In this document: piece after piece, positions 5,252-35,481 of the stretch
Position numbering within the stretch: the stretch's first letter is position 1
Layout of the letters: every line of letters starts with the position of its first letter
Assembly (NCBI GenBank): GCA_027028625.1
Contig: JALVIH010000036.1
Location: 1-62,685, forward strand
Direction of reading: 5' to 3'
From: a bacterium
GTDB taxonomy: Bacteria > Patescibacteriota > Microgenomatia > JAADGY01
Length of the DNA: 62,685 nucleotides
Notes under the pieces: model-generated
What the model saw: only the letters and a program-made list of their open reading frames with translations
What the model was told of the DNA's origin: nothing
Databases searched by the model: none
Position numbers and translations under genes: made by a program

Positions 5252-5944
5252 CTACCAATACCCTAACTTCCTTAATCTTTGCATTATCTTTTCTTTGGTG
5301 GCTTCCCGTCCAGCTCGCTCTGGGGCATTAGGATCATCTACTGGTTTGGTAAAAGGAGCTTCTCCTAGTGATTTATAGCCTTTATCATACAAAGAAACAT
5401 AGGGTACATTGTAGGTTTTTATGTACTGCCATATATCATCTAAAGTAAAGTGAAGAATAGGATGGACCCGAGTATGGGTTGATCGAGGAGAAAAATATCT
5501 TTCCTTTGAACGAGCAGGATGTTCATCCCAGCGGATGCCAGAAATAAAAGCCTTAATCTTGTATTTATCTAAAGCATAGTTGATAGCATTGATCTTGGCT
5601 ATTCGCATTATCTCCATAGCCTCATCTTTGTTACCTTCTTCCATAGCTTGATGATAAGCAGTCAGATCTTCATCAAGATGTTTTATCCATAACAAGTCTA
5701 GATTCCATTCTTTTTGATATTTTTTAATAAACTCATAGATTTCTTTAAACTCAATAGTTGAGTCATTAAACATTACCTTAAAGGGTACCTTGCCATCAAA
5801 CACCTCCCTTACCAAATGTAAAACCACTGTTGAGTCTTTGCCTCCAGTCCAGGCTACAGCAATCTGATCATGGGGCCATTTATTAGCTGCTTGTTTTATG
5901 ATTTCGAGGGATTTTTGGATTTTGTCGGCTAAGGTCATCTTCAT
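5252..5944 (-). CDS. PAPS-reductase/CysD-like ATP pyrophosphatase family protein
   Basis: PP-loop-type WTGGKDSTVVLHL and a C-terminal ERAGR...LRKLGYW tail resembling CysD/FAD-synthetase-like members. Confidence 0.75.
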   Translation of the reverse strand: MKMTLADKIQKSLEIIKQAANKWPHDQIAVAWTGGKDSTVVLHLVREVFDGKVPFKVMFNDSTIEFKEIYEFIKKYQKEWNLDLLWIKHLDEDLTAYHQAMEEGNKDEAMEIMRIAKINAINYALDKYKIKAFISGIRWDEHPARSKERYFSPRSTHTRVHPILHFTLDDIWQYIKTYNVPYVSLYDKGYKSLGEAPFTKPVDDPNAPERAGREATKEKIMQRLRKLGYW

Positions 5945-5974
5945 AAGGTATTATAGCGTAGATTTAAGTAAGGA

Positions 5975-7831
5975 TTATCTAATCTTAAGATACTCTTTCT
6001 GGCAGGCATCTCGCAAGATAATAACGTCAGTATACTTATACATCCATCTCAAGGCCCTGAAGGCTTTATCTTTGGGAAAGGCCTGATAGGCGCATCGGTA
6101 AAAAACATCCTTGGCCTTTCTTTTTTGGTTATGGCGGAGATAAAAGGCAGCTAATTTTAGATAGGGCCGCGGCGAAACTAAAGGATTAATCTCCACCGCC
6201 TGCCGATATCTTTTCTCCGCCTCTCGGGGCCGACCCTTTGCCTCAGCAATAATTCCCAAGTTATACTCTATCTCTCCCAAGTAAGGGTAGATCTTCTCCG
6301 CCCGCCTCAACCAGTATGAGGCTTTATCCAAATCTTTCAGCCTCATATAACCAAGACCGGTAAGAAAATAGTTGCGGTAGTTGAAAGGATAATATTTAAT
6401 AGCCAACTGGCTTTTTTCTAGCCATTGCTTTCTATTTAATTGCCGCTGACCTAGTTCTGCCCGCAGTTGGGAGGAAAGCCTCATCCCTAAAATCACATAA
6501 ATAACCACCAGACCAATTAAACCGATACTACTCTTCATTAAAAGAGGAGAAACATTTTTGGCTTTTTTCTTATCTTCACTCAGGCCTATAATTACCCCCC
6601 CTATGACTACATACCAAAATACAAGGGAAACGAGAGACAAGTCCATATCAATCAGTGAATGAAGGCTCTCAGATAAAAATCCCCAAGTTAACAAAAAAGC
6701 CAGCATTCTTTTATCTCTGCTTCCTCGACCACTAGTTACAAAACTCAGACCACACCATATAATCCATCCTACCCAAACTAGCCACAACAAGCCTACTACC
6801 ACTCCTCCTTCGGCTGCTAACTGCAAAGGCTGACTGTGAACAAAATTAACCATAATCCAGGGATGGTTCTGAATCAAACGGTAGTAGTAACGAAAATCAC
6901 CCAGGCCAACCCCCAATAATGGCCGCTGGCGAATAACCCTTAAAGTATCTCTAAAAGCAATTAACCGATACTCCCAACTAATCGAGGCCGGACCTCGCGA
7001 TTGGTTCTGGCCTTTAGATTCTTCTATTAGAACCTCAGTATGACCAGTAACCATCTTAACAATATGGCGGTTAAAAATAAGCATAAAGGAAAAAGTAAGA
7101 ATAAATGCTAATCCCACTTCCTTCCAACTGAGAAAAAAGTATTCTCTTACTTTCTTCTTAAGCCCCAACCAAAATAACAAAAAGAACAGAGAGATCAACC
7201 AAGCCAGCCAGCTGCCGCGAGAAAGGGTCATACTCAATAAAGCCAAACTAGTAGCGTAAACTAAAATGTAAACCAAGCGGGCAGATTCCTCCTTTTTCTT
7301 ATAAGCCAACCATAAGAGGGTAGGGGAGACCATTAGCAACCAGCCACCCATTTGGTTATGCCAATAAAAAGGGCCGCTTATCCGAGGAATTCTACCTAAC
7401 CCATAAGCTTGAAGGTTAAACCAGCTGATTAAGAAAAAAATAGCTAAATAAATTAGCATTCCAACCGCTGCAAAAGAAAAAATGTCTTTACCTTTCCATT
7501 CCTTACTTATTTCTTTCATTTCTAGGAAAACAAGAAAAAGTAAGCTATAGACCAATCCCCACTTTAAGGTGGTCCACTTATCGATGGCAGCCGCGATCAA
7601 ATTGGCAATTACCAAAAAATTAAAGCCCAGCCAAATTAAAAAATCTCTTTTTCTCCATTCTCTTACAAAAAGAGCGCCTATCCCCACACTTAGCCAAAGA
7701 CCTAACAAAAGTTGTGAGTTAAGATCTCCAGCTCTGGACCAAAACCAGATAGAGACGACTAAAGCTACACCTAGAAGGAGTTGGAATAAAAAGCTTTTTT
7801 TCAACTTAATCAACAAACTTACGGCAGACAA
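5975..7831 (-). CDS. O-antigen ligase/polymerase-like (Wzy_C) polytopic membrane protein with C-terminal TPR repeats
   Basis: At least 10 hydrophobic segments, an LSRGSWLAWLISLFF motif typical of the Wzy_C family, and C-terminal TPR-like repeats (YNLGIIAEAKGRPREAEKRYRQAVEINP). Its start overlaps the pilin stop by 13 nt. Confidence 0.7.
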   Translation of the reverse strand: MSAVSLLIKLKKSFLFQLLLGVALVVSIWFWSRAGDLNSQLLLGLWLSVGIGALFVREWRKRDFLIWLGFNFLVIANLIAAAIDKWTTLKWGLVYSLLFLVFLEMKEISKEWKGKDIFSFAAVGMLIYLAIFFLISWFNLQAYGLGRIPRISGPFYWHNQMGGWLLMVSPTLLWLAYKKKEESARLVYILVYATSLALLSMTLSRGSWLAWLISLFFLLFWLGLKKKVREYFFLSWKEVGLAFILTFSFMLIFNRHIVKMVTGHTEVLIEESKGQNQSRGPASISWEYRLIAFRDTLRVIRQRPLLGVGLGDFRYYYRLIQNHPWIMVNFVHSQPLQLAAEGGVVVGLLWLVWVGWIIWCGLSFVTSGRGSRDKRMLAFLLTWGFLSESLHSLIDMDLSLVSLVFWYVVIGGVIIGLSEDKKKAKNVSPLLMKSSIGLIGLVVIYVILGMRLSSQLRAELGQRQLNRKQWLEKSQLAIKYYPFNYRNYFLTGLGYMRLKDLDKASYWLRRAEKIYPYLGEIEYNLGIIAEAKGRPREAEKRYRQAVEINPLVSPRPYLKLAAFYLRHNQKRKAKDVFYRCAYQAFPKDKAFRALRWMYKYTDVIILRDACQKEYLKIR

Positions 7832-8355
7832 ATGTAGTAGTTACCATTATTTATCTCGTCTTCAACAAAAGACCAATCTGCCGCATGCTTAGCCGATTCC
7901 TTTTTGAAGGAATTGGAGGATGGTTTGAAACAAGCATAAACACCTTCTACATCGCCATCGCTTTGGGCGCCGGCTGGGTCAACATAGATATAAATATGAT
8001 TTTCTGGCTTAGAAGCATCGTTTACTAGTCGGGTCTTAAAACCTTTTTTAATTTCCTTGGTATCCACTAAGTTCTTTAATAGGGAATTAGCAAGTTCTGT
8101 GTTAACTGCATGTAGACCTCCATCCGCTACTGCTTGAACATCAAAGGGGTATTCCTCTTGGGAAGCATAATACCTATCTATGGCATTTAAGATTTGGGCT
8201 GCATCTGACCTCTTCTTAGTGTCTCGACCTTTATTTATTTGTTCAAGAGGGTTAATAGAAGAAAGCACCGCCACTGCTAAAACACCGATCACTGCAATCA
8301 CTACTAATAACTCAATCATTGTAAAACCTGGCATTTTTATTTTTTTAAGTAGCAT
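7819..8355 (-). CDS. type IV pilin (prepilin with class III signal peptide)
   Basis: N-terminus MLLKKIKMPG/FTMIELLVVIAVIGVLA, with the G|F cleavage site and Glu5. Two C-terminal Cys. Strong AGGAGG Shine-Dalgarno upstream. Confidence 0.85.
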   Translation of the reverse strand: MLLKKIKMPGFTMIELLVVIAVIGVLAVAVLSSINPLEQINKGRDTKKRSDAAQILNAIDRYYASQEEYPFDVQAVADGGLHAVNTELANSLLKNLVDTKEIKKGFKTRLVNDASKPENHIYIYVDPAGAQSDGDVEGVYACFKPSSNSFKKESAKHAADWSFVEDEINNGNYYICLP

Positions 8356-8396
8356 AAGCTCCTCCTAAACTCTTTCTATATTACCAATGTAAATCA

Positions 8397-9602
8397 TTAA
8401 AACTGACTTGTCAAGTTGTAAATTGGGGTAATTATCGAAAAGACTAAGAAGCCAACCCCTAAACTAAGGATAATGATGATAATTGGTTCGATGCTAGTAG
8501 TTAGGTTCTTGACCTTTTGGGAAGCCTCAACCTCAAAGTAGTGGGCTAATTTATAGAGCACTTTATCCAGCTCTCCTGTTTGTTCTCCTATACTAACCAT
8601 TTGAGAAAGAATTCGAGGAAAAACGTCGCTTATCTCCATCGCCGTTGACATCGGAATACCTTTTTCCACTTGGCTCATAACCGCCTTTACTTCCTCACTA
8701 TAGTACTTATTCCCAGTTGTCTCAGCACTGATATCTAAGGCAGTAATTAAGGGCACTCCCGCCTCCAATAACATAGAGAGAGTATAACTAAAATTAGTCC
8801 AGATTACCTCCTGTTGCAAACTTCCCCAAACTGGCAGCTCAACTATCATTTTGTCCCACAAATAGCTTCCCCAAGGAGTCCTTCTCACCCACTGAATAAG
8901 ATTAATTAAGCCAATCAAACCAATGAGAAACAACCACCAGAAATGGACCATAAAATCAGAAAAAGTAATCAGGATACGGGTAGAAAGAGGTAGTTGGGTA
9001 TGAAAACTCTGATAAAGCACATTGAGCTTCGGAATAACCACCACCATCATTACTGCTGCCACTAAGACCATAGCAATAATGACAATTGCCGGGTAAATTA
9101 AAGCGCCTTTGACCTTGCTCATAAAGTCACGGTTCTTCTCCAGATTATCAGCCAGACGTTCCAGTACTTTATCTAAGGCCCCCGCCGCTTCTCCTGAACG
9201 AACGAGAGAAATATAAACCCGACTAAAGATACTTGGATAATGGGAAAGAGCTGATCCTAAAGATGACCCTTCTCGGATGTCTACTAGAATTTGCTCCAAA
9301 ACTTTTTTCATTGGACCGCTGGCTTGGGAAGCAAGAATTTCTAGGGCATTGGTTAGAGGCAGACCAGCATTGAGCATAGTTGAGAGCTGGCGGGTAAAGT
9401 TAGTCAACTCATTCTGACTAACCTTTCTATGCAATCCCAATCGGCTAAAAAGGTTCGTTTTCTTTTCCTTTTCCGACAGCTTGATAATGTGGTAACCTCG
9501 TTTGAGAAGAAGGTTCTTAGCCCCTTCAAGAGAAATAGCTTCAATAACCCCCTTTACTTTTTGTCCCTCATCACTTCTGGCTACAAAAGCAAATTTCTTC
9601 AT
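8397..9602 (-). CDS. pilC: type IV pilus assembly platform protein PilC (GspF family)
   Basis: 401 aa with a duplicated GspF-type domain and three TM segments; it follows pilT and pilB. Confidence 0.9.
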   Translation of the reverse strand: MKKFAFVARSDEGQKVKGVIEAISLEGAKNLLLKRGYHIIKLSEKEKKTNLFSRLGLHRKVSQNELTNFTRQLSTMLNAGLPLTNALEILASQASGPMKKVLEQILVDIREGSSLGSALSHYPSIFSRVYISLVRSGEAAGALDKVLERLADNLEKNRDFMSKVKGALIYPAIVIIAMVLVAAVMMVVVIPKLNVLYQSFHTQLPLSTRILITFSDFMVHFWWLFLIGLIGLINLIQWVRRTPWGSYLWDKMIVELPVWGSLQQEVIWTNFSYTLSMLLEAGVPLITALDISAETTGNKYYSEEVKAVMSQVEKGIPMSTAMEISDVFPRILSQMVSIGEQTGELDKVLYKLAHYFEVEASQKVKNLTTSIEPIIIIILSLGVGFLVFSIITPIYNLTSQF

Positions 9603-9609
9603 CCTTCTT

Positions 9610-10662
9610 TTAGAGTAACTTTTCTAGATTCTCCGGCTTTAGGGCATAAGACAGAGCCACTTCTCTATCAACAGCCCCTGACTTAACTAGGGAGGCCAAG
9701 GACATTTCCAAACTCATCATTCCTTCTTGCACCGAAGTACTAATAATGTTATCCAACATTGTTACTTTTCCTTCCCGAACAGTATTTCTGACAGCAGGGT
9801 TGGCAATTAAAATCTCCGTTGCTGGTAAGCGGCCACCTTGGGTAGCCGGAACTAAACGTTGGGAGATCACCATTTCCAAAGTAGTAGAAAGCTGCAACTT
9901 CACTTGATCCTGTTGTTCTTCAGGAAAAACATCGACAATTCGATTAACTGTCTGGGCGGCAGAGTTAGTGTGTAAAGTAGCTAAAACCAGGTGGCCTGTC
10001 TCAGCGATAGTCAAGGCAGCAGCAATTGTTTCATAATCCCTCATTTCTCCAATAAGAACGATGTCTGGATCTTCTCTAAGGGCGCTTCGCAGAGCCGCTG
10101 ACCAAGAAAGGGTATCGTTATACATCTCTCGCTGAGAAATAATGGAAATGTCAGAATAATAAACATACTCTATTGGATCCTCAATGGTAATGACATGAAC
10201 CGGCCGGGTTTTGATTATTTGATCAATAACTGAGGCAAGAGTTGTTGACTTACCATGGCCAGTTGGGCCAGTCACCAAAACCAAACCCTGGCGAAGATCA
10301 AAGATCCGCCGCAGCACTGGAGGTAGATGTAATTCAGTCAAGGTGGGAATCTTACTAGGAATTGCCCGAGCAGCCAGGGCCGGCTGGCCTTGTTGATAGT
10401 AAATATTAACCCGAAAACGGACCTTGTTAAGATAAGAAAAAGAAAAATCCAGCTCTTTTTTCTTCTCAAAAATCTTCTCTTGTTCTGAAGTAGTAACTGC
10501 CTTTATGCATTCTTCTACCTCTCCTTTAGTTAACGCTTGGGAATATTTCTTAAAAAAACTGAGTTGGCCATCTATCCGCCACATTGGTGGCTTACCTACT
10601 AAAAGATGAAGATCACTAGCTTGATGTTGAAGAGTTTCTTCTAAAAGTGCTTTTAGTTCCAT
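9610..10662 (-). CDS. pilT: twitching-motility retraction ATPase PilT
   Basis: 350 aa. Walker A GPTGHGKST, and an AIRAALRHDPD-like SALREDPDIVLIGEMRD box; size is typical of PilT. Confidence 0.9.
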   Translation of the reverse strand: MELKALLEETLQHQASDLHLLVGKPPMWRIDGQLSFFKKYSQALTKGEVEECIKAVTTSEQEKIFEKKKELDFSFSYLNKVRFRVNIYYQQGQPALAARAIPSKIPTLTELHLPPVLRRIFDLRQGLVLVTGPTGHGKSTTLASVIDQIIKTRPVHVITIEDPIEYVYYSDISIISQREMYNDTLSWSAALRSALREDPDIVLIGEMRDYETIAAALTIAETGHLVLATLHTNSAAQTVNRIVDVFPEEQQDQVKLQLSTTLEMVISQRLVPATQGGRLPATEILIANPAVRNTVREGKVTMLDNIISTSVQEGMMSLEMSLASLVKSGAVDREVALSYALKPENLEKLL

Positions 10663-10674
10663 TTTTTCCTTTTC

Positions 10675-12459
10675 TTAACTTTCTAATGTATCTGATTGGG
10701 ATATCTGGGCTACTCTGAGTACCTCTTCGATAGAGGTTATTCCTTGTAAAGCCTTAAGATAACCATCTTGTTTCATTAAGATCATTCCCTCTTTTAAGGC
10801 AGCTTCTTCTATCTCCCCTGAAGAGGCTCTTTTTAAGATTAGCTTAGTAATAGTTTCAGTAACATAAAGAACCTCAAATATGCCAATTCTTCCCATATAG
10901 CCGGTGTTGTTGCATTTAGAACAACCTTGAGGCTCCCAAACCTTAATCTTATCCTCAGAAGGATATATAGACTTATACATATCTCCTAATACATTAATAA
11001 TATCTTTTTTGACTTCTGGGGAAGGATTGTCTATTTCTTTTTTACAGTGGTTACACAATCTCCGAACTACCCGCTGGCCAACTACACAAGTCATTGAGGA
11101 AGCTAACAAAAAGGGTTCCGCTCCCATATCTAACAAACGAGGGAGGGCTCCAGCCGCTGAGTTAGTATGTAAAGTTGAGAAAACCAGGTGGCCTGTCAAG
11201 GCAGCTTGAATGGCTAGCTCAGTAGTCTCCCGATCACGAATCTCTCCAACGAGAATAATATCCGGGTCTTGACGGAGGAAGGAACGCAAAGCAGTGGCAA
11301 AGGTAAGACCAGCTTGAGGATTCACCTGAACCTGAGTTACTCCAGGAATCTCATACTCAACCGGGTCCTCAACTGTCATTATATTTACTTTTGGAGAGTT
11401 AATCTTGGAGATTATTGAGTAAAGGGTGGTTGTTTTACCTGAACCAGTTGGACCAGTAATTAGAATAATTCCATGAGGAACCTGAATAGCCTTTTCCAAA
11501 CGCTTGAGACCAATCCCGCTTAGGCCCAGCTGGGGGAGGGTAGGGGCAGCTGTCGATTTATCCAGCAACCGCATTACTATCTTTTCCCCATGGATAGTAG
11601 GAAGACAAGAAACACGGAGATCAATCTCTTTGTCTCCTCGGCGATAAGTAAATCGCCCATCTTGAGGCACCCGCTTTTCATCTATCTTCATATCAGACAG
11701 AATCTTGATGCGCGAAACCAAAGCATCATGAAGACTTTTAGGAAAAACTGTCTTTTCCCTCAAAATTCCATCAATTCGGTACCTAACCCTTGTTTTATCC
11801 TCCAACGGCTCGATGTGAATATCTGAAGCCCGACTGTTAATAGCCAGATCGATTATCGAGTTGATAATGTTAGCAATGGGCATATCCTTAATAAAGGTTG
11901 TCTTCCCGTTCTTATTCTTAATAGTTACTTCACTTTGAGTCTTCTTCTGATTAATAGACTTTACCTCAGCTAAAACCTTACTGACATCTCCAAGCATCTC
12001 CTGAGTGTAGTTATTAGAGATAGCTAGATCTATTTGTTGGAGAGGGGCAAAGTAGGGCTTAATCTTGACATTTAATTTCCGAGAGAGGAAGTTTATCAAA
12101 TCCAGATCTAAGGGGTCAGCCATTGCCAAAGAAAGAGTGTTGTTTTTCTCATCATAATCAAAAGCAACAACATGGTAGTGGCTAGCCAAATCCCCCGACA
12201 ACTTCTTAACTGCCTCATAGTTGAAAGCAACATTGTTCAGATCAACTTTGGGAATGTTGAAAAGCTCGGCCTTGGCTTCAGCTATATCTTCTGGAGTAAC
12301 CAGATTAGTCTGCTCCTTCAGATAATCTTCAACCGTTATCCCCTTCAGAGCAGCTTCCATTTCTATCTTTTTCGCCTCTTCTGGCTGTATCTTCCCCTTG
12401 GCCACTAAGATGCTCAGGAGAGTTTTTGGTTGCTGCTGTTTCTTCTCATCCTTTCCCAT
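10675..12459 (-). CDS. pilB: type IV pilus assembly ATPase PilB (GspE family)
   Basis: Walker A GPTGSGKTT, RSFLRQDPDIILVGEIRD, and a tetra-Cys motif CNHC...CSKC. 594 aa. Confidence 0.9.
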   Translation of the reverse strand: MGKDEKKQQQPKTLLSILVAKGKIQPEEAKKIEMEAALKGITVEDYLKEQTNLVTPEDIAEAKAELFNIPKVDLNNVAFNYEAVKKLSGDLASHYHVVAFDYDEKNNTLSLAMADPLDLDLINFLSRKLNVKIKPYFAPLQQIDLAISNNYTQEMLGDVSKVLAEVKSINQKKTQSEVTIKNKNGKTTFIKDMPIANIINSIIDLAINSRASDIHIEPLEDKTRVRYRIDGILREKTVFPKSLHDALVSRIKILSDMKIDEKRVPQDGRFTYRRGDKEIDLRVSCLPTIHGEKIVMRLLDKSTAAPTLPQLGLSGIGLKRLEKAIQVPHGIILITGPTGSGKTTTLYSIISKINSPKVNIMTVEDPVEYEIPGVTQVQVNPQAGLTFATALRSFLRQDPDIILVGEIRDRETTELAIQAALTGHLVFSTLHTNSAAGALPRLLDMGAEPFLLASSMTCVVGQRVVRRLCNHCKKEIDNPSPEVKKDIINVLGDMYKSIYPSEDKIKVWEPQGCSKCNNTGYMGRIGIFEVLYVTETITKLILKRASSGEIEEAALKEGMILMKQDGYLKALQGITSIEEVLRVAQISQSDTLES

Positions 12460-25501: not shown

Positions 25502-25575
25502 CGGGGATTAGCTCAGATGGCTAGAGCGCTACGTTCGGGACGTAGAGGTCGGCGGTTCAAGTCCGCCATCCCCGA
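25502..25575 (+). tRNA. tRNA-Pro (anticodon CGG)
   Basis: Cloverleaf read by hand: acceptor CGGGGAT/ATCCCCG, anticodon stem CTACG/CGTAG with loop TTCGGGA, and T-arm GGCGG TTCAAGT CCGCC. No encoded CCA. Confidence 0.9.
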
Positions 25576-25712
25576 CTAAAAAGAAAACTAAAAAAAGTTT
25601 TCCACAATAAGGATAAAGGGTAATTGCGTTGCATTTTTCTTCACGATCCAAAAGATCACTTCTCTCATTCTAGGCACTTCCTACTTTTTATTTTCACAAG
25701 CCGCGTGAAAAT

Positions 25713-25878: not shown

Positions 25879-27180
25879 ATGCCCAGACAACAGGAAGAGG
25901 GCTTGTCTTACCTCAAAACCGAAGAAGTATTAAGCCAAGAGCTAGGAGATAACAAAATTACGGAAGAGTATTCTTGGCTAGCAGCTATCAAAGCTATAGC
26001 TAAGGAAATAAACAGCTTAACAATAAAAGAAGCTAAAGAAGGAGAACCTAAATTTGACTCTGAAGCTTTAACTTTTTATTTAAAACACAACCCTACCCTC
26101 CAGGAAGTAATGATGGTTACTCGTCAGTTCATGGAGAAAAGACAAGAAGAAGGAAAAAAGACTAAAGAGGATATAACCAGGGTCGGTATAACCCTTCAAG
26201 ACATCACTATTCTCTTAGCCAAAGAACTGAAAAACACAAAAATCACAGACAACCAAACCAGAAAAAAATTAGAAGAAACCTTAGTAGAGATATATAGACT
26301 CGGAGTAGTCATTCAAACCCTCGAACTTAAGAAGGAAAGAATACCCTTTGAAGACCTAACAAAGAAAACACTCCATTATCCTCAAGGTGACGAGGAATCA
26401 AAAAAGGTATATGAAAGAGAGCTATGGTTTTTCATCTTAGGCAAGTATCATCCTACCATCGCTTTAAGAAGTGAGTATGATATGTCCTCGTATAAACTGA
26501 GAAAAAAACCACCGCCGAGAAACTACTGGGATATGTATGAGGATTGGTCAGAACGATTCCTTAAAACCAAATTAAGAAGAGTGGAAACAAAACAATTAGG
26601 TATGCCTCACTTATTTTCTGATGAAATTAACCCCCAACTTAGAAAACTCCATGAAGCAATAACAGCTATTGAAAGTGGAGATATGACAGGGCAAAAAGAC
26701 AAAACTAGGGAAGCTGAGATTGCTATTACTCAATATATCCTAAACAAATTAGAGGATGAAACTTTTAGAGTGATTGATACTATCATTGATAGATGCCCAT
26801 CACCAAATCTAGAAACAATTCTTCAAACCCTTAGCAAGACAATTAATATTCTAATGAGTCATCAAAAAGAATTACTTACTCAGGTCTTTGAGACTAAAAT
26901 CTGGAGAAAGAGAAATTTAATTAAACAACAAGCACTCAGATTCATTTTAGAGAGAAACTCTTTGTCCCCTCACACCGACGAGGCTTTAAAAGAAGTAAGC
27001 CGCACTGGCATAGAAGGACAATTTCTATCTACCTTTTTAGAGCATGGTTTGGATGAAGTAGAAGAAAAAATGAAACTACCAAAACAAAGCTTCACTGCTT
27101 TTTTAAGACTTCTTAAGGAATATGCTCCAATTCAAGCGATAAAAATCCTCAAAAATAACTATGGTGAACATTATTTTTAA
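25879..27180 (+). CDS. hypothetical protein (433 aa, predicted mostly helical, Lys/Glu-rich)
   Basis: Long uninterrupted ORF. I recognise no motif. Confidence 0.65.
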   Translation: MPRQQEEGLSYLKTEEVLSQELGDNKITEEYSWLAAIKAIAKEINSLTIKEAKEGEPKFDSEALTFYLKHNPTLQEVMMVTRQFMEKRQEEGKKTKEDITRVGITLQDITILLAKELKNTKITDNQTRKKLEETLVEIYRLGVVIQTLELKKERIPFEDLTKKTLHYPQGDEESKKVYERELWFFILGKYHPTIALRSEYDMSSYKLRKKPPPRNYWDMYEDWSERFLKTKLRRVETKQLGMPHLFSDEINPQLRKLHEAITAIESGDMTGQKDKTREAEIAITQYILNKLEDETFRVIDTIIDRCPSPNLETILQTLSKTINILMSHQKELLTQVFETKIWRKRNLIKQQALRFILERNSLSPHTDEALKEVSRTGIEGQFLSTFLEHGLDEVEEKMKLPKQSFTAFLRLLKEYAPIQAIKILKNNYGEHYF

Positions 27181-28090
27181 AAAAGCTGGCGATGAAATTA
27201 AAAGGAGAGAGAAAAAAGAAGGAAAACTCACTCCCCATCAAAAAGCTAAAATAATTTTCCAATTAGTTGCTCATTATCCCTATAAATTAACTTATTCCCT
27301 AACTGAAGCTATCAAGAGCCGAGGGTTTGAATGTAACTTAAAAGCTATTATCGCTGCCAGCCTTCTAAGGAAATTAGTCCCTGAAATAAAGGTATTTGGA
27401 GTATTGTCTTTTGGACATGTTTTTTTAGGCTTACAAATAGGGAAAGATATATATATTTTTGACCCCACTAATCACATATTTGAATCGGCACCATCCAGTT
27501 TATCTCAAACAGTACATCAATATATAAAAAGTGGCCAAATAGCTTCTAGGCGAACCACTTATATAATCCCTCCTTCTTATCGTTACATATACTATGAGGT
27601 AGGCCAACCAGAAAAAATATTCTTGAGCTCTCTACTTTATAATATTTCCTCCCTAAATTCAGCCCCCTACCTACAAAAGCAGATTACAGAGTCGAGCATA
27701 AGAATTAATCCACTTCTTGATCTGCCTCTCAATACATTGGGGACTATGTTTTTCGACACAGCCCAGTTCCAGAAAGCGCAAGATTATTACAGAAAAAGTA
27801 CAAGTATAAATCCTCAATACTATAATCCTTATAATAATATTGGTGTTATCTACGATGAGTGAGGAAGATATAATGAAGCAATTAAGTATTATAAAATGGC
27901 CTTGATTCTCAAACCTGCATACTCTTCCCCTTGGGAAAACTTAGCTGATCTTTTCCTTTCTCTTAATGAATATCAGAAAGCGACCATTTGTTATCAAATG
28001 GCACTAAGATATACAAAAGATCCAACCATTAAACAAAACATTTTAGAAAAACTTAAACAAGCAAAGGAAGGCTTACAACATTCTTCTTAA
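27161..28090 (+). pseudogene. transglutaminase-like Cys-His-Asp domain + TPR protein interrupted by an in-frame TGA (27860-27862)
   Basis: A C...H...D spacing (GFECNLKAIIAASLLRKL ... FGHVFLGLQ ... IYIFDPTNH). A TPR repeat runs through the stop in the same frame: NNIGVIYDE*GRYNEAIKYYKMALILKP. Confidence 0.6.
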
Positions 28091-28905
28091 ACACTAATTC
28101 CTACAGGATAAAAAATGTGAGTAAGGTAGTGGTACTCATTGTCCGTATTGAATGGACCCTTGAGATACATCTCAAAGACTGGCGGACTAATAGGTAGCTT
28201 ATTCTTTCTAAAGTAAAGATCCAATTTCCGATAAACCATTGCCAAAAAGCGGTATGGACCAAGAAAGGAAAACCTGTAAGCCGGCCGCCGCTGATATCTT
28301 TCTACTTTAAAACCAGAAGGTAGCTTCTCCTCCTTTACCCTCCCCCCTTTGATGATTAAACCTATCTTCAAATCAGCCTCCAAAGGACTAAAATAAGGCG
28401 TTTGATAAAAGGTAATTTCTAAAGGTTCAAACTTCGCTCCACTTCTATCAGCTACCTCCCATAATAACTTAACATAGTCATTTATCTGATAATAACTCCC
28501 CTTTACTTTATAGGTTAGAAGCTGCCAACCACCAATCCACACCTTCTTTAAGGCTGGCCGTCGACTATTCAAAAATTTATTAAAGGAAAGAATAAAATCT
28601 CTCTTAGCTTGGAGAAGTTTTATCTCCTCATCTAAATTAGCTACCATATCTGAAACTTTTACCTTTCCCCTGCCCTGTTCACCTATCTCCTTTAACCCTA
28701 ACCCTAGCTCTTGTAACCACTTAATCTTTAATACCTTCTCTATTTGATCCAACCGATAATAACGATAGCCAGTCCACTTATCTTGATAATCAGGTTCAAG
28801 AAGTCCTTTTTCCTGCCACAAGCGTAAAGCCCGAGGAGTAGTTAGAGCTACTTTAGCAAACTCTGCTATCCTTAAAAGTTTGACTTGACTTTGACCCTGC
28901 GTCAT
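28087..28905 (-). CDS. MerR-family transcriptional regulator with GyrI-like/effector-binding C-terminal domain
   Basis: N-terminal HTH LLRIAEFAKVALTTPRALRLWQEKGLLEP...GYRYYRLDQIEKVLKIKWLQELGLGLKEI. 272 aa, as in BmrR/TipA-type regulators. Confidence 0.85.
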   Translation of the reverse strand: MTQGQSQVKLLRIAEFAKVALTTPRALRLWQEKGLLEPDYQDKWTGYRYYRLDQIEKVLKIKWLQELGLGLKEIGEQGRGKVKVSDMVANLDEEIKLLQAKRDFILSFNKFLNSRRPALKKVWIGGWQLLTYKVKGSYYQINDYVKLLWEVADRSGAKFEPLEITFYQTPYFSPLEADLKIGLIIKGGRVKEEKLPSGFKVERYQRRPAYRFSFLGPYRFLAMVYRKLDLYFRKNKLPISPPVFEMYLKGPFNTDNEYHYLTHIFYPVGISV

Positions 28906-28942
28906 AGTTTATTATACTCCCACTATGACAGCTATCTATCAA
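28891..28942. promoter_or_regulatory. symmetric bidirectional promoter in a 19-bp divergent gap (core ATTATACT at 28911-28918)
   Basis: Plus strand: TTGACC (28891-96)-16-TATACT (28913-18)-6-ATG (28925). Minus strand: TTGATA (28937-42)-20-TATAAT (28911-16)-5-ATG (28905). An 8-bp dyad GTCATAGT/ACTATGAC (28901-08 / 28922-29) embeds both start codons. Confidence 0.5.
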
Positions 28943-30640
28943 ATTTTAGCCAAAAATGAAAATTTAACTCTGGCCGACTGGCAGGAGTTGGAAAGAAAAA
29001 TAAAACCGTTCACTCGGTCCTTTTCCCTTTTTATCGACATTAAGGATTACAAATTCCATTTCTACCTTTTAACTCCAAAAGATATCTCTTCCTCTCTAGC
29101 TGATCAGTCTCACCTTTTCTTTAAAAAGATTACCGCCCTTCCTCTGCCCCATCATCGACTTCCTCATATTTTCCGCTTGCCTAAGAAAAATCTTTTTGAT
29201 CTTATTACCTATTACCAGTTAAGGAAAAAGGAACAACTAAACCAACTTCTTATCACTTACCATAACTTTCCCTGGCCGTTCTATTTAACTACCTTCTTCC
29301 TAGGCAATTCTTCCAGCACCTTTTTTACCTTTTCTCCTCCCTACCATCTTCTTCAACTCAACTTCAAAAACCACCACACTTTCAAACTCAAGAAGTTGCC
29401 AGACTTTCTCAATCCAGACAAAATACAAACTCTTCTTACCTTCGACTCGAAACTAGCCTTAGCCAAAGTAGACCTCTTCCCATATTTAACTAAACCCGCT
29501 TTCTTCCCTGTTTCTAGTCTTGATTTAGCCAAACACTCCCTCATTGTTGGCCAAACAGGTACTGGTAAATCAAAACTTATCCAACTGATAATCAGCCAAC
29601 TTCTGAATTTTCAGTCTCAGCCTTTTCATATAATTCTTATTGATCCCCACCTAAGGTTAGCTCAACAGCTCCATCTCAACTTTCCTCAGAGAAGCCAGCT
29701 GATTGATTTTATCCACCAAACTGTACCCCTTCTCTCTAGTCTCCATCAACCTCAAACCGCTACGGAACTAACTATTCTTCTTTTTAAAACTTTACTAGCC
29801 AACCAGTTTAATTCTTACCTCCAACGTCTTCTCCGCTACACTCTCTTTACTCTTTACACCACTCAGTCGGCCTCCCTAACCAACCTTTACAAATTTTTAA
29901 CAGATGAGGAATATAAAAACCAGTTAACCAACAAGCTTCCTCAAGATTATCAACATCTAAAACACTTCTTCGACACCGATTTTATTAAGTATCAAACCGC
30001 CTACTATGACATTACTTTTATGCCCCTTATCTCTCTTCTAGAGGAGCTTAATTTTCTCCCCTCCTTCACCTCCTCCAAATCCAAATTATTACCCCTTGAC
30101 AAGACAATCAACACCTACCCTCTGACCCTCTTTGCTCTCGACCAACTGTATCTGGGAAATGCTAACTCCAAACTTATTTCCGGCCTCATTGTTCAACAAA
30201 TCTTCCTCCTGGCTCAGAAAGGAGGACTAACTCACCCAACTCTCCTAATTATTGATGAAGCCCCCTTAGTCGAAAACGAGGCTTTAGCCACCATTCTTTC
30301 CCAGTCACGAAAGTTTAAGCTCTCTATGATTCTCTCCTACCAGTACCTTAGCCAGACTAAACCTAACATCCTTGAATCTATAAAGACAAATGTCTACAAC
30401 TATTTTATCTTCAAAACTTCTGATAACGATGCCAAACTCTTAACTAATCTTATCGAGTTAGACCTAAAAAACAAAACCACTAACCCTATTCATCAAGATC
30501 GCTTTCGAACTCAGATTATCACCTCTCTCAACCCCCGCCAACTGCTTATTCGCCCTTTTTTCGAAAACAAATTTTATCCAGCTTTCAAAGCCGAAACTAT
30601 TGACATTAAAAACTTATTTCCATCAAAAGATGCTAGCTAA
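28925..30640 (+). CDS. FtsK/HerA/TraG-superfamily P-loop NTPase (571 aa) with an unknown 200-aa N-domain
   Basis: Walker A VGQTGTGKS (29549-), Walker B LLIIDEA (30242-30262), then SQSRKFKLSMILSYQYLSQ (the Arg/Gln-rich motif of this superfamily). Amino-acid composition is highly unusual. Confidence 0.75.
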   Translation: MTAIYQILAKNENLTLADWQELERKIKPFTRSFSLFIDIKDYKFHFYLLTPKDISSSLADQSHLFFKKITALPLPHHRLPHIFRLPKKNLFDLITYYQLRKKEQLNQLLITYHNFPWPFYLTTFFLGNSSSTFFTFSPPYHLLQLNFKNHHTFKLKKLPDFLNPDKIQTLLTFDSKLALAKVDLFPYLTKPAFFPVSSLDLAKHSLIVGQTGTGKSKLIQLIISQLLNFQSQPFHIILIDPHLRLAQQLHLNFPQRSQLIDFIHQTVPLLSSLHQPQTATELTILLFKTLLANQFNSYLQRLLRYTLFTLYTTQSASLTNLYKFLTDEEYKNQLTNKLPQDYQHLKHFFDTDFIKYQTAYYDITFMPLISLLEELNFLPSFTSSKSKLLPLDKTINTYPLTLFALDQLYLGNANSKLISGLIVQQIFLLAQKGGLTHPTLLIIDEAPLVENEALATILSQSRKFKLSMILSYQYLSQTKPNILESIKTNVYNYFIFKTSDNDAKLLTNLIELDLKNKTTNPIHQDRFRTQIITSLNPRQLLIRPFFENKFYPAFKAETIDIKNLFPSKDAS

Positions 30641-31370
30641 AGAAGCCTTCCAATTAGTAGATCATGTTTGGAGTTCAATCTTTAACCAGCCAATGCCTTT
30701 TAAACACCTCGAGGAGGTCAAAACAATCCTAGCTGCTTCTATCCCTTTACCTACCCAGGTGAAAACTATCCGCAAGACCACTGCTTATCTTACCCCTACC
30801 TACTTTCCCATACCCAACACCTACTTGGATTATCAAGACCTCAAACCAGCTTCTGTCAAATCCCAACCATCCCCACTTCCTTCACCAGACCAATTTATCA
30901 AGGCTTGGCAGGAAAAAAAGATCTGGGTGGTTAATAAAAACATCAGCTCAGCCAAGATCAGCCAGTCCGATAATGTTTACCAAAGCCAAAATGTTTACAA
31001 CTCTTGTTATGTTTTTAATTCTAAAGACATCATCTTCAGCCGCCAGTTGGGTTCTTGCCAGCGGCTTATTGCCAGTTACAACAATGACTCTTGTACCTCC
31101 AGTATTCGCTTAAGTGACAGTCTCAACTCCTCTTACTGTTTTGAAGTTTCTTGGTCCAATAAAGTTTCCCATTCGATGTTTATCCACAATGGTTACAATC
31201 TTTATGAATGCCTTTTCTGCCAGAATCTCTATTCTAAAAAATACTGCATCGCCAACATCCAGTTTTCCCCTACTGATTACTTCACCCTTAAAGAACAAAT
31301 TATTGCCTACCTAGCTAAAGATAACTGGTCCAACCTTATTCCTTTAATCTCCCCTGCTCGCCGCCGCTAG
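30630..31370 (+). CDS. Cys/Ser/Asn-rich repeat protein (about 246 aa), unknown function
   Basis: The ATG at 30630 overlaps the ATPase stop by 11 nt. The C-terminal half has repeated S/N-x-Y/C patterns with 9 Cys (…NSCYVFNS…GSCQRL…DSCTSS…SSYCFEV…YECLFCQNLYSKKYC…). Confidence 0.55.
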   Translation: MLAKEAFQLVDHVWSSIFNQPMPFKHLEEVKTILAASIPLPTQVKTIRKTTAYLTPTYFPIPNTYLDYQDLKPASVKSQPSPLPSPDQFIKAWQEKKIWVVNKNISSAKISQSDNVYQSQNVYNSCYVFNSKDIIFSRQLGSCQRLIASYNNDSCTSSIRLSDSLNSSYCFEVSWSNKVSHSMFIHNGYNLYECLFCQNLYSKKYCIANIQFSPTDYFTLKEQIIAYLAKDNWSNLIPLISPARRR

Positions 31371-33153: not shown

Positions 33154-33719
33154 TACCTTAAATTTTACACCGATAATATCTTTTCCTCCATTTCATCCTG
33201 AGTTATCGGGATGTAGCCAAAGGCGCGGGGGATTGGAACTTGGAGCTTGGAATTCAGAACCTAGTCGAAAAGAAGAAGACTTAGCCAGTCTAGAGTAAGT
33301 AAGAGCTTAGAAAAAACTTGGATACCAGTACCTTTGCGCTCGCTTCCGCTCGCTAGATCCCGACAAGTCGGGATGACATGGAGAAATAGGTATGCCTTCT
33401 CCTCGAGTCATCCTGAACGAGCCGTCAGGCGAAGTGAAGGATCTAGCCGAAGGCGCACGAGAGTAAACCAAAGCCTGAGTGCTAATCCTTGCGCTCGCTA
33501 TTGCTCGCTAGATCCTTCGTCGCTCTGGCTCCTCAGGATGACTTCCTAAAAAAGGTTTTTATTTGGTTGTTGGAATTTATGTTTTAGTGCTTTCTTGCCA
33601 AGTTCTAAGTTCTAAGTTCCAAGCTTTAAGATCATCACACTCTCGAAGAGTGATAAATCACACTTCGGGAGAGTGATTTATTCAAGTTCCAAGTTCCGAT
33701 TACCTAGTTCCTAGTTCCT
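33154..33719. repeat. mosaic palindromic intergenic cassette C
   Basis: Heptamers at 33231-33262, a variant core at 33288-33377, an arm-core-arm hairpin at 33407-33542, heptamers at 33598-33630, a 46-bp palindrome at 33631-33682, and heptamers at 33684-33719. Confidence 0.9.
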
Positions 33720-34373
33720 TCAATACCCTTCGCTGTGAATGTCTATGGAATTAAGGCCGGCCTGGCGGACGAGTTGGCCAATCTGGCGGACAAAGGACAA
33801 AGAACCAACGATATAATAAACCGTCTCATCTGTTAGCCAGGAAGAGAGATAATCCTCAATATGACCATTCTTAATCCCAGCTACTTTCTGCCGAGACAAA
33901 ACCGGCTGGTAATCAGCATACTTCCGAAATAAATTAGCCCAAACCAGATATTCCTGGTAACGTTCCTGATGAACTACTCGTTGTTTTCTCCTCTTTTTAA
34001 ACTCTAGGACTAAACTCCTCACCCCAGCCACGCCGCATCCTGCCACCAAATAAGTAATCCTAGGCAGATCTTGAAAATGACCGCTATGGTGGACTCCCAT
34101 TGGCCCAGAAATCTCCACCTCACTCCCTATCTCTTTATTAAAAAGATGATTGGACATCTTCCCTCCAGGCACCCGGCGGATATAAAACATTAAGAAGTCT
34201 TCACTTGGATGGGAAGATAAAGTATAAGCCCGGCGAACAAACTGACCATTAATAGTGTCGCCTATCATCACAAACTGGCCAGGATGATAAGTAAAACCTG
34301 CCGGCCGATTGGTAGTCAAGATATACTTCTCCTCCCCTACCGGCCGGCGGTCTTGAATAATTACTTTACTCAT
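33720..34373 (-). CDS. ferredoxin-NADP reductase-type FAD/NAD(P)-binding oxidoreductase (217 aa)
   Basis: RRAYTLSS (RxYS FAD motif), GGKMSNHL, ISGPMG, LVAGCGVAGV, and a terminal aromatic residue (…HSEGY). Confidence 0.8.
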   Translation of the reverse strand: MSKVIIQDRRPVGEEKYILTTNRPAGFTYHPGQFVMIGDTINGQFVRRAYTLSSHPSEDFLMFYIRRVPGGKMSNHLFNKEIGSEVEISGPMGVHHSGHFQDLPRITYLVAGCGVAGVRSLVLEFKKRRKQRVVHQERYQEYLVWANLFRKYADYQPVLSRQKVAGIKNGHIEDYLSSWLTDETVYYIVGSLSFVRQIGQLVRQAGLNSIDIHSEGY

Positions 34374-35045
34374 CTACTTTTTCTTAGGAGTTAGTTTCTT
34401 ATGGCAAAACCACCAATCAAAGCAGTCGTACTTTTTACTCCTCTCCCCTGCTGTCTTAACATCCTCAGCTGGCGGAACAATACCTTCATCTTTAATCAAT
34501 TCGTTATTCGGCCAGTTGGCTGGTAAAGCCACTTTCTGAGCATCGCTTGTCTGCAAAGCTTTGACAGCCCGAAGAATCTCATCTACATTTCTCCCAATCT
34601 CTTGGGGGTAAAAGAGAATAAGGCGTATTACTCCCTTCGGATCGATGATGAAAACTGCCCGAACTGTATTAGTCCCTTTGGCTGGATGAAGCATTCCCAA
34701 ACTGTCAGCTACCCACCCCATATCATCAGCAATTATGGGAAAAGGAATCGTAACTCCTAACTTCTCTTCAATCCACTCTACCCACTTAATATGGGAAAAA
34801 ACTTGGTCAATTGACAAACCCAAGAGTTCGGTATTTAATTTTTTAAACTGGGAATAACGCTTGGCGAAGGCAACAAACTCAGTAGTGCAAACCGGAGTAA
34901 AGTCAGCTGGATGGGAGAATAACACCAACCATTTGCCTTTGTAATCATCAGGTAAGACCTTTTTGCCATGAGTGGTTTTCACCTCCATAAAAGGAAATTG
35001 GTCACCAATTAAAGGAAATTCATTTATTACTATCTCATCCTCCAT
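34374..35045 (-). CDS. peroxiredoxin (Prx6/archaeal-type)
   Basis: Peroxidatic site [12 protein letters not shown] and a C-terminal CFDWWFC pair of Cys. GGGAGG Shine-Dalgarno upstream. Confidence 0.92.
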
Positions 35046-35481
35046 CTCTGCCTCCCTATCAATTTTATTAATTTATTAACTACCATTAGTTTAACACAAA
35101 ACGGAACTTGGTTATCAGAACTTAGAACTCGAATAAATCACTCTCCCGAAGTGTGATTTATCACACTTCGGGAGCGTGATGAACTTGGAGCTTGGAACTT
35201 AGAACTCAGTAAAAATAACCAATTATCAATGATCAATTTTCAGACAAACTCCAAGCACCAATGATCCAACTTCTAAACCTTGTCTATCAAGTCATTCTGA
35301 GTGTTAACGAAGAATCTAGCGAGCAGCGCGAGCGCAAGGATTAGCACCCAAGTTTGAGAGCACTCTCATGCGCCTTCGGCTAGATTCCGACAAGTCGGGA
35401 TGACCCGAGAGGAGGTTGTACTTTATAACTTTATGAACTTTATGAACTTTCTAACTTCATAAACTAAGTTCTAATCTCGTG
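35046..35481. repeat. mosaic palindromic intergenic cassette D
   Basis: Heptamers at 35101-35130, a 46-bp palindrome at 35131-35181, heptamers at 35181-35208, an arm-core-arm unit at 35290-35403, and a ctttatgaa-type repeat at 35420-35474. Confidence 0.9.

Follow-up and report, generated by a model that had tools for sequence, protein, structure and literature searches.

The window analysed here is a stretch of 62,685 nt, positions 1 to 62,685 of contig JALVIH010000036.1 (assembly GCA_027028625.1) of a bacterium of the Patescibacteriota (Microgenomatia, JAADGY01). At 28087-31370 it carries a gene for a soluble P-loop ATPase followed by a gene for a repeat protein, here called the partner, with a MerR-family regulator gene transcribed divergently. 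The ATPase and partner genes form an ancient two-gene unit that is co-inherited in the candidate phyla radiation (CPR), and the module is found almost only in CPR bacteria and DPANN archaea, a wider range than the initial annotation, made from the DNA of the window, could see. The three open reading frames (ORFs), the 19-bp gap and the 11-nt overlap described there are reproduced by the ORF map and the sequence:

28087-28905, minus strand: merR, MerR-family regulator, 272 aa (ORF map)
28906-28924: divergent gap between merR and the ATPase gene, 19 bp
28925-30640, plus strand: NTPase gene, soluble P-loop ATPase of the HerA/FtsK/VirB4/VirD4 superfamily, 571 aa (ORF map)
30630-31370, plus strand: partner gene, 246 aa from the ATG at 30630
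30630-30640, plus strand: overlap of the ATPase stop and the partner ATG, 11 nt, translational coupling

In an alignment of homologues the partner start is the ATG at 30630, where the homologues begin, and not the upstream TTG at 30600.

A two-gene unit of CPR bacteria and DPANN archaea

Eighty loci (numbered with L) from species-representative genomes were retrieved with the ATPase alignment, and their six-frame ORFs were scanned with profiles of both families. Homologues of both window proteins come mostly from Patescibacteria. Full-length orthologues (scores 340-860) are present in contigs of near-identical strains (L001-L003, L005), in relatives (L004, L006-L009) and in L010-L041; the CPR range spans Microgenomates-type lineages, Saccharimonadales and one Uhrbacteria locus. 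In every testable CPR orthologous locus (36/36) a partner homologue is the next gene on the same strand; the two orthologous loci without a visible partner, L020 and L024, stop at the contig edge. Among the 35 pairs measured, the interval between ATPase stop and partner start ranges from -14 to +15 nt, a 4-nt ATGA overlap being the commonest arrangement. The distance matrices of the ATPase and the partner are correlated (Mantel r = 0.92, reached by 0 of 2000 permutations), and the mean divergence of the two proteins is alike (0.58 and 0.59).

The adjacency of ATPase and partner is far above chance. The reading that it is incidental, with the third ORF no real gene or functionally unlinked, could appeal to a frameshifted partner gene in the near-identical strain L003; it is refuted by the unbroken adjacency and the narrow range of gaps, and, given also the strong conservation of the partner (64% mean column identity across the family) and its archaeal homologues, has virtually no chance of being right.

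Beyond the pair, clustering of the flanking ORFs of 38 loci yields no third recurrent gene of any kind and no genes of a type IV secretion system (T4SS) nearby. The annotated neighbours are housekeeping and locus-specific: SecDF, RNA polymerase, HrcA-GrpE-DnaK, D-Ala-D-Ala ligase and others. The initial annotation had proposed a three-gene module, an idea to be given up if the two proteins did not co-occur elsewhere or if the NTPase fell among canonical coupling proteins with full T4SS loci. The neighbourhood comparison finds neither: the proteins co-occur as a coupled pair and T4SS genes are absent. What survives of the three-gene module is the pair; the trio does not, since the MerR gene is limited to one clade, and its absence from all other loci reduces the ancient unit to two genes. 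In some CPR loci the partner gene is multiplied, with six tandem single-unit genes in L012 and two in L038.

The partner family profile, searched against 1.84 billion representative proteins, has 986 matches at E<=1e-3, which are either single-unit proteins of ~235 aa or proteins of ~525 aa with two complete units; the named members of the latter class belong to Micrarchaeota or to an uncultured archaeon. One such locus, L090, lies on a contig that is archaeal by TBP, ribosomal L21e, Rpb4, CDC48 and NFACT; there, the gene for a 700-aa DUF87/TrwB_AAD ATPase stands immediately ahead of two partner genes of the duplicated form. This ATPase aligns to positions 6-573 of the CPR profile, the N-terminal domain included (274 bits). 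In BLASTP comparisons the window ATPase is 27% identical to the archaeal ATPase (E 9e-47), and the window partner is 26% and 25% identical to the second and the first half, respectively, of the archaeal duplicated protein (E 8e-21). In four Micrarchaeota orthologues the ATPase profile covers hidden Markov model (HMM) positions 6-573, 32-573, 6-97 and 36-71, so that the N-terminal region is aligned wholly or partly. Four partner genes lie beside the ATPase gene in L091 and six in L093; no partner match was detected in L092. The Micrarchaeota arrays thus hold two to six partner genes, for the most part of the tandem-duplicated ~525-aa form. The archaeal ATPases form more than 300 clusters, of which the 120 listed share 45-100% identity with the L090 ATPase; the named ones among those listed come from Micrarchaeia, Anstonellaceae, Bilamarchaeaceae and Parvarchaeota.

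The L012 locus (5845-12059), on a 136-kb contig labelled Micrarchaeota, encodes, ahead of its six single-unit partners, an ATPase of CPR type that scores 748 bits with the CPR profile, and has TnpB-like and HTH (helix-turn-helix) transposase-like genes just upstream of the ATPase; it is either a mis-binned contig or a recent inter-domain transfer.

A paralogous theme occurs in Paceibacteria (L086 621-7536, L085, L053 and L059), where soluble VirD4-like ATPases of ~480 aa lie near Cys-rich proteins of ~570 aa, one or more per locus and three or four in tandem at most (four in L086). The large proteins bear treble-clef zinc fingers at either end, and their CxxC-ladder repeats finish with CFGCVGxxNKxYCIFNKQYTKEEY. 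Their homology to the small partner is shown by direct profile matches (best 5e-16), by hhalign (E 2e-5) and by jackhmmer, which retrieves the small family. The ATPases of this theme match T4SS-DNA_transf, TraG-D_C and the VirD4-like CD1115 family.

The ATPase and its beta-solenoid-like partner

The initial annotation had assigned the NTPase to the HerA/FtsK/VirD4 superfamily, and the assignment holds, with VirB4 added. The window ATPase passes Pfam DUF87 (PF01935, HerA central domain) with 38.3 bits against a cut-off of 23.2, a profile that 41/41 members of its family match, and its AlphaFold2 (AF2) model, built on the family alignment (pLDDT, the predicted local distance difference test, 89.7), retrieves from the Protein Data Bank (PDB) with Foldseek DndH-C, archaeal and defence HerAs (SIR2-HerA, DUF4297-HerA, Nezha), VirB4 and TrwB, at E 1e-11 to 1e-8. 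The protein has no transmembrane (TM) segment (maximum Kyte-Doolittle 19-residue mean 1.31) and is probably a hexameric ring. The Walker A, Walker B and downstream motifs read from the sequence at the outset are present, with key residues invariant in the 41-sequence alignment A3:

29549-29572, plus strand: Walker A GQTGTGKS, residues 209-216; G209, G212, G214 and K215 invariant in A3
30242-30262, plus strand: Walker B LLIIDEA, residues 440-446; D444 and E445 invariant in A3
30308-30313, plus strand: R462-K463 of the SRKF motif, invariant in A3
28925-29509, plus strand: N-terminal alpha/beta domain, residues 1 to ~195, family-specific
29750-30115, plus strand: all-helical insertion in the ATPase fold, residues 276-397 (AF2 secondary structure), comparable to the all-alpha domain of TrwB

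A SYQY motif is also present. R462-K463 is presumably the arginine-finger position of HerA/VirD4-type ATPases, as family knowledge suggests. The N-terminal domain has no sequence match in Pfam, NCBIfam or the PDB and is modelled confidently, most 10-residue blocks averaging pLDDT 80-94. The TM-scores (template modelling) of the PDB matches, ~0.36-0.43 when normalised to the query, limit the structural likeness to the ATPase core, and the matches of the family profile to PDB sequences are confined to the surroundings of Walker A.

Several named families were considered and rejected. An identity as HerA is contradicted by NF040819 and NF042943, which score ~12 bits against cut-offs of 970 and 800, by the lack of a recognisable HAS barrel, and by a partner with no NurA, Sir2 or DUF4297 match. 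FtsK/SpoIIIE is excluded as well: PF01580 reaches 19.6 against 24, over the Walker A region only, and there is no TM segment. A canonical type IV coupling protein (T4CP) would have an N-terminal TM anchor, where the AF2 model has a globular alpha/beta N-terminus; no linkage to T4SS, relaxase or mobile-element genes is seen in the 38 loci; and the scores fall short, PF10412 (TrwB_AAD_bind) at 19.4 against a cut-off of 20.5 and TIGR03743 at 18 against 366, PF02534 giving no match. TrwB_AAD_bind is matched by 36/41 family members, up to E 3.8e-15, which makes the family a relative of the T4CPs and not a member. The likeness to VirD4/TrwB/TraG consists in a P-loop nucleotide-binding domain with an all-helical insertion, the structural match to TrwB and the TrwB_AAD_bind matches of most relatives; the differences are the dedicated solenoid partner and the presence of the module in archaea too.

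The best structural matches overall are predicted viral structures (BFVD), namely ATPases of jumbo Bacillus phages (phage G gp156 and phage JL; phrog_5156), with E 1e-18 to 1e-20 and query-normalised TM-scores of 0.53-0.62. The phrog_5156 profile matches the window ATPase at 1e-21; gp156, one of the three best BFVD structural neighbours, matches the ATPase family profile at 5.7e-17. Unlike the window protein, the phage ATPases are 800-900 aa long, with gp156 beside a VirB-like gene and no solenoid partner alongside. A phage origin of the pair was rejected: tblastn searches with the two proteins found no match in 50,697 phage records, and a relaxed search with a Daviesbacteria orthologue returned noise only. 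In phage G itself (L095, 89194-93336), gp155 (VirB-like) adjoins gp156, which is annotated as MsbA-like; this annotation looks wrong.

The partner has no match in Pfam, NCBIfam or PADLOC, and a marginal, non-significant one in PHROGs (E 0.064). Its family profile finds nothing among PDB sequences, even at E 10, and Foldseek with its model finds nothing significant (best E 0.46, WeeI and PglD); the weak top matches are left-handed beta-helix acyltransferases. The AF2 model (pLDDT 70) has an N-terminal alpha/beta domain, period-6 strands over residues 108-150 and a C-terminal helix, and three regions can be told apart:

30630-30929, plus strand: N-terminal alpha/beta domain, residues 1-100; block-mean pLDDT 62-95, best (86-95) over residues 1-50
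30942-31247, plus strand: hexapeptide-repeat beta-solenoid, residues 105 to ~206
31209-31349, plus strand: C-terminal signature ECLFC-x4-SKKYCIANxQF-x4-Y-x3-K, then an amphipathic helix

F18 and W93 are invariant in the N-terminal domain, which is found in both halves of the archaeal duplicated forms. The S/N/Y-rich repeat noticed at the outset is genuine: position 3 is S or C in each of nine hexads in a row (residues 105-158), and the autocorrelation peaks at lags 6 and 12. The suggestion of a beta-solenoid is supported by the hexad repeat, the period-6 strands of the model and the weak left-handed beta-helix matches; since the periodicity at lag 12 exceeds that at lag 6, the coil may differ from a standard hexapeptide beta-helix. 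All cysteines lie in the solenoid region, together with an invariant His186, and number seven (C126, C143, C155, C170, C194, C197, C206), not nine as first counted. F196, I207, N209, Y217 and K221 are common to the CPR single-unit, archaeal duplicated and Paceibacteria large forms. With hexapeptide-repeat left-handed beta-helix proteins (LpxA, PglD, gamma-carbonic anhydrase) the partner shares the six-residue period, a small residue at a fixed position and, in the AF2 model, stacked short strands; it differs from them in having no Hexapep Pfam match, no significant structural match (the E of 0.46 noted above) and no acyltransferase features. Neither the ATPase nor the partner carries a membrane anchor or a signal peptide.

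Two departures in strain contigs concern the partner gene. In L003 (4993-5897), whose ATPase is 100% identical to that of the window, it lies in two frames, one for profile positions 1-122 and one for 122-232; the gene called in L002 has a later start and encodes 225 aa.

The MerR regulator and its promoter

The MerR protein has an N-terminal HTH (residues 12-75; Pfam MerR_1, PF13411, 45.6 bits, cut-off 21.6), after which come a linker helix and, at the C-terminus, a GyrI-like effector domain (~190-268); it contains no cysteine. The GyrI-like model of Pfam stays below its cut-off (19.3 against 26 bits); among solved structures, 7zhe and 7zhd, both GyrI-like domains, align with residues 192-268 (E 2.6e-6), and the L007 orthologue has a recorded GyrI-like match. 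The nearest solved proteins by sequence are EcmrR (6xl5), the GyrI-like domain 7zhe and BmrR. Lacking cysteine, the protein would be a small-molecule sensor of the BmrR/EcmrR type and not a metal sensor. Of the BmrR/TipA-like label given to it earlier, the effector domain and the BmrR (GyrI-like) affinity are retained and the TipA type is dropped.

MerR orthologues divergent from the ATPase gene are found solely in L006, L007 and L008, whose ATPases are 52-55% identical to that of the window, and at none of the other loci. Conservation is unusually high in these three and the window over the intergenic DNA and the first codons of merR, and the motif TTGACT-N19-TAT(T/G)AT is kept in all of them, at an identity of just 52-58% between the encoded proteins. 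The candidate elements in the window are:

28885-28915, plus strand: candidate MerR-type promoter of the ATPase operon; -35 TTGACT at 28885-28890, 19-bp spacer at 28891-28909, -10 TATTAT at 28910-28915
28888-28908, inside the spacer: candidate MerR operator, imperfect dyad ACTTTGAC-N5-GTCATAGT, 7/8 positions complementary
28891-28918: overlapping promoter-like site TTGACC-16-TATACT, from a consensus scan limited to 16-18 nt spacers
28911-28938, minus strand: merR promoter-like site TAGATA-16-TATAAT, a consensus match whose -10 overlaps the ATPase -10 back to back

A 19-bp spacer with an internal dyad is the hallmark of the BmrR/MerR/EcmrR promoters, which are activated by promoter distortion. 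The right arm of the dyad includes the merR start codon (CAT, 28903-28905), and the core TGAC-N5-GTCA is present in three of the four sequences, the left arm being TTAC in L007. With the ATPase ATG (28925) 9 nt past the -10, the mRNA would be nearly leaderless. The consensus scan finds 9 promoter-like sites in the region, where 7.2 are expected.

Given the conserved 19-bp-spacer promoter with its dyad, control of the operon by MerR in the window's clade is likely, and the ligand- or stress-type control suggested by the initial annotation becomes plausible for the window and its three relatives. The restriction to a single clade indicates that MerR was acquired late and lies outside the ancestral module. 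A BmrR/EcmrR-type MerR would thus have been recruited in this clade, and a small-molecule or xenobiotic signal would switch the operon on; a putative operator placed in the spacer, over the start codon of merR itself, would make the operon inducible and merR autoregulated. By sequence, the window MerR resembles activators of the BmrR/EcmrR type in its HTH-coiled coil-GyrI-like architecture, its length (272 aa as against 268-284), the divergent gene and the 19-bp spacer with internal dyad. It differs in that its target is not an efflux pump and its GyrI-like domain is divergent.

At 9478-9681 in L007, an extra 67-aa MerR/HTH_17 gene lies right after the partner gene on the opposite strand. The G-depletion of the coding strand is a further peculiarity of MerR-linked loci: with GC skews of -0.48 and -0.33, respectively, the ATPase and partner genes are the extreme case among the 47 ORFs in the window that encode 200 aa or more (median +0.08), values are similar in L006, L007 and L008 (-0.34 to -0.45), and they are ~0 in other CPR and archaeal orthologues.

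Function and surroundings of the pair

The explanation we favour, with a probability of about 0.45 for the whole, is a bicistronic operon that encodes a ring ATPase and an obligate solenoid partner, is controlled by MerR in the window's clade, and yields a complex coupling translocation to the function of the solenoid. Its genomic and structural parts, as set out above, can be held with high confidence. The two proteins would form a stoichiometric complex, their ratio fixed by translational coupling, and the partner may dock on the family-specific N-terminal domain of the ATPase. ATP would drive a polymer through the ring, most likely DNA by analogy with HerA, TrwB and DndH, and this movement would be coupled to a recognition, effector or processing function of the solenoid, a logic like that of HerA-NurA, HerA-Sir2, HerA-DUF4297 and DndFGH. 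Action of the complex on DNA is, taken by itself, a tentative proposal.

HerA-partner complexes (archaeal HerA-NurA; SIR2-HerA/Nezha and DUF4297-HerA; DndFGH/DndH) are among the nearest known systems. Shared are the ATPase core fold (Foldseek E 1e-11 to 1e-9), DUF87, the DPH and RK motifs, a partner gene that is adjacent or overlapping, and, presumably, a stoichiometric complex. By contrast, the family-specific alpha/beta domain replaces the HAS barrel, the partner is a beta-solenoid and not a nuclease, Sir2 or DUF4297 protein, and the pair has the behaviour of a lineage core gene, not of an island gene. The ATPase-solenoid pair, the solenoid partner and its occurrence in Micrarchaeota have no description in the literature searched, a limited corpus, and no entry in the family libraries describes the pair, in keeping with the view of the initial annotation that this is not a described system. 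The module appears to be novel, with an unannotated partner family and an unusual CPR and DPANN distribution; a ring ATPase with a dedicated partner is known as a type.

Several observations weigh against the favoured explanation. The likeness to a generic core suits DNA translocases (HerA, TrwB, DndH) and the assembly ATPase VirB4 equally, so that the substrate cannot be read from structure. In the partner, no catalytic or nucleic-acid-binding domain can be recognised, and its best conserved segment, residues 153-203, is modelled with pLDDT <50. The link to MerR consists of sequence conservation in four loci, and part of that DNA also encodes the MerR N-terminus. Cysteines are not found in every unit, several archaeal duplicated first units having no CxxC; the earlier idea of metal binding is accordingly possible for the partner and does not define the family. 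Finally, arrays of partner genes (six in L012 and in L093, four in L091) are unusual for HerA-effector systems and look more like cargo or a diversifying family.

The last point leads to the chief rival, in which an orphan T4CP-like ATPase acts as receptor or motor for the solenoids, which would be its cargo or adaptors, recognised by their C-terminal motif and helix and exported via a route encoded elsewhere, e.g., a Patescibacteria T4SS. Such an arrangement would resemble VirD4 with its effectors, or the FtsK-like EssC with substrates of the type VII secretion system (T7SS). Arrays of two to six partners are typical for substrate families; the C-terminus, where T4SS and T7SS signals lie, is the best conserved part of every partner; TrwB_AAD_bind is recognised in most of the family and TrwB is among the structural matches; and the Paceibacteria paralogue matches T4SS-DNA_transf, TraG-D_C and CD1115. 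A 2025 survey of Patescibacteria reports 5,713 VirD4-like T4CP homologues in 2,918 genomes, of which 148 are near virB4, and raises exaptation as a possibility for them (PMC12102498). Genes mostly away from virB4 fit the window ATPase family, and T4CP profiles of this kind would pick up both that family and the Paceibacteria paralogue; a solenoid partner is not mentioned in the passages of the survey that were read. However, the ATPase lacks a membrane anchor, genes for a channel, a relaxase or a T4SS are absent from the surroundings in the 38 loci, and no T4SS is known from Micrarchaeota, where the module also occurs. Signal peptides are missing from the partners, and their Cys/His clusters, like the treble-clef zinc fingers of the large forms, suit the cytoplasm, while the strict 1:1 translational coupling in CPR is more subunit-like. 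In the same survey, a Southlakia t4cp homologue, which may or may not belong to this family, is reported to be non-essential and the T4SS genes essential (PMC12102498). Export of the solenoids as cargo is therefore rated as rather unlikely, if ahead of the remaining rivals.

The initial annotation pointed to anti-phage systems, and a defence against phages or plasmids of the HerA-plus-effector type, with MerR as the switch, would agree with SIR2-HerA, DUF4297-HerA, Nezha and DndH among the top structural neighbours, with TnpB and HTH transposase-like genes in L012 and AbiEii in L059, and with the PADLOC model mad8, which matches the ATPase domain at 2e-14. The PADLOC scan that the annotation had recommended returns no catalogued defence system. 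The MADS defence system is defined by mandatory mad6, mad7 and mad8, with methyltransferase and restriction-like genes (bioRxiv 10.1101/2023.03.30.534895); among the seven ORFs scanned at and around the locus, the partial mad8 match (51.7 bits) is joined by an HTH-level match to mad1, the required mad6 and mad7 are absent and the other MADS models are unmatched, so MADS was rejected. The partner has no PADLOC match, no nuclease, Sir2, TIR or protease domain is detectable, and the contexts are housekeeping and non-mobile. The two genes co-diverge in CPR, and the full-length named ATPases of the Micrarchaeota group are 45-85% identical among the matches listed; both features make the module look like a lineage core gene and not a patchy island gene. 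The anti-phage suggestion thus gains no specific support, and a defence role appears improbable.

Least probable of the functional alternatives, and very unlikely, is metal or redox handling, in which the Cys/His-rich solenoid would bind a metal or an Fe-S-like cofactor and the ATPase would be a loading chaperone under a MerR-family regulator. C155, C167, H186, C194, C197 and C206 are conserved in the CPR family, the regulator does belong to the MerR family, and peroxiredoxin genes lie near the locus in the window, L009 and L093. Yet this MerR has no cysteine and a GyrI-like small-molecule domain in place of a metal site, many archaeal first units have lost Cys, no HerA/VirD4-type ATPase is known to act as a metallochaperone, and the peroxiredoxin neighbourhood is not conserved.

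Returning to the ring ATPase with its solenoid subunit, the distribution of the module gives some hint of its use. A large part of microbial diversity belongs to CPR bacteria and DPANN archaea, organisms with tiny genomes that rely on hosts; to our knowledge, most of their lineage-specific genes have no known function. A module almost confined to genome-reduced episymbionts may serve a need that they share, e.g., the handling of acquired nucleic acid. It is conceivable, at long odds, that the module is a dedicated machine of ultra-small episymbionts, shared between CPR and DPANN by ancient transfer. Its task would be to move or process DNA or protein from the host where symbiont and host meet, and substrate or host specificity would come from the growing set of solenoid paralogues. 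A role at the host interface or in DNA acquisition, if true, would bear on how these organisms make a living.

Whatever the function, the analysis defines a two-gene module with an unannotated partner family that has no solved relative and is expanded into arrays, and provides a cross-domain case for gene sharing between episymbionts. It also proposes a definite identity for a part, at least, of the orphan VirD4-like ATPases counted in thousands of genomes of Patescibacteria, and supplies a partner to co-express and a candidate inducible promoter and regulator to exploit.

The remaining observations concern the surroundings of the locus in the window, where no second paralogue or T4SS-like ATPase was found elsewhere. 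A tRNA-Pro gene (25502-25576) is followed by a stretch of low GC content (0.35) that runs to ~33200. An integrated element at this tRNA was considered and rejected: no att-like repeat of the tRNA end was found up to 35.8 kb, no integrase was found, and relatives carry the module in unrelated contexts. The low-GC stretch contains ORFs of 433 aa, 429 aa and 173 aa (Gly/Lys/Glu-rich) with no significant family match. Beside merR, a stop splits a TPR-repeat gene into ORFs of 233 aa (27161-27862) and 64 aa (27896-28090); an intact 309-aa version is present in the near-identical strain contigs L002 and L003, and the split gene is either a pseudogene or an assembly error. Downstream, repeated intergenic elements at 33236-33677 and 35114-35404 surround a FAD_binding_6/peroxiredoxin gene pair (33720-35045); these repeats (families D1, D2, D4 and D5) include palindromic units, e.g., ATCACACTCTCGAAGAGTGAT, and a 26-nt repeat whose copies are 96% identical.

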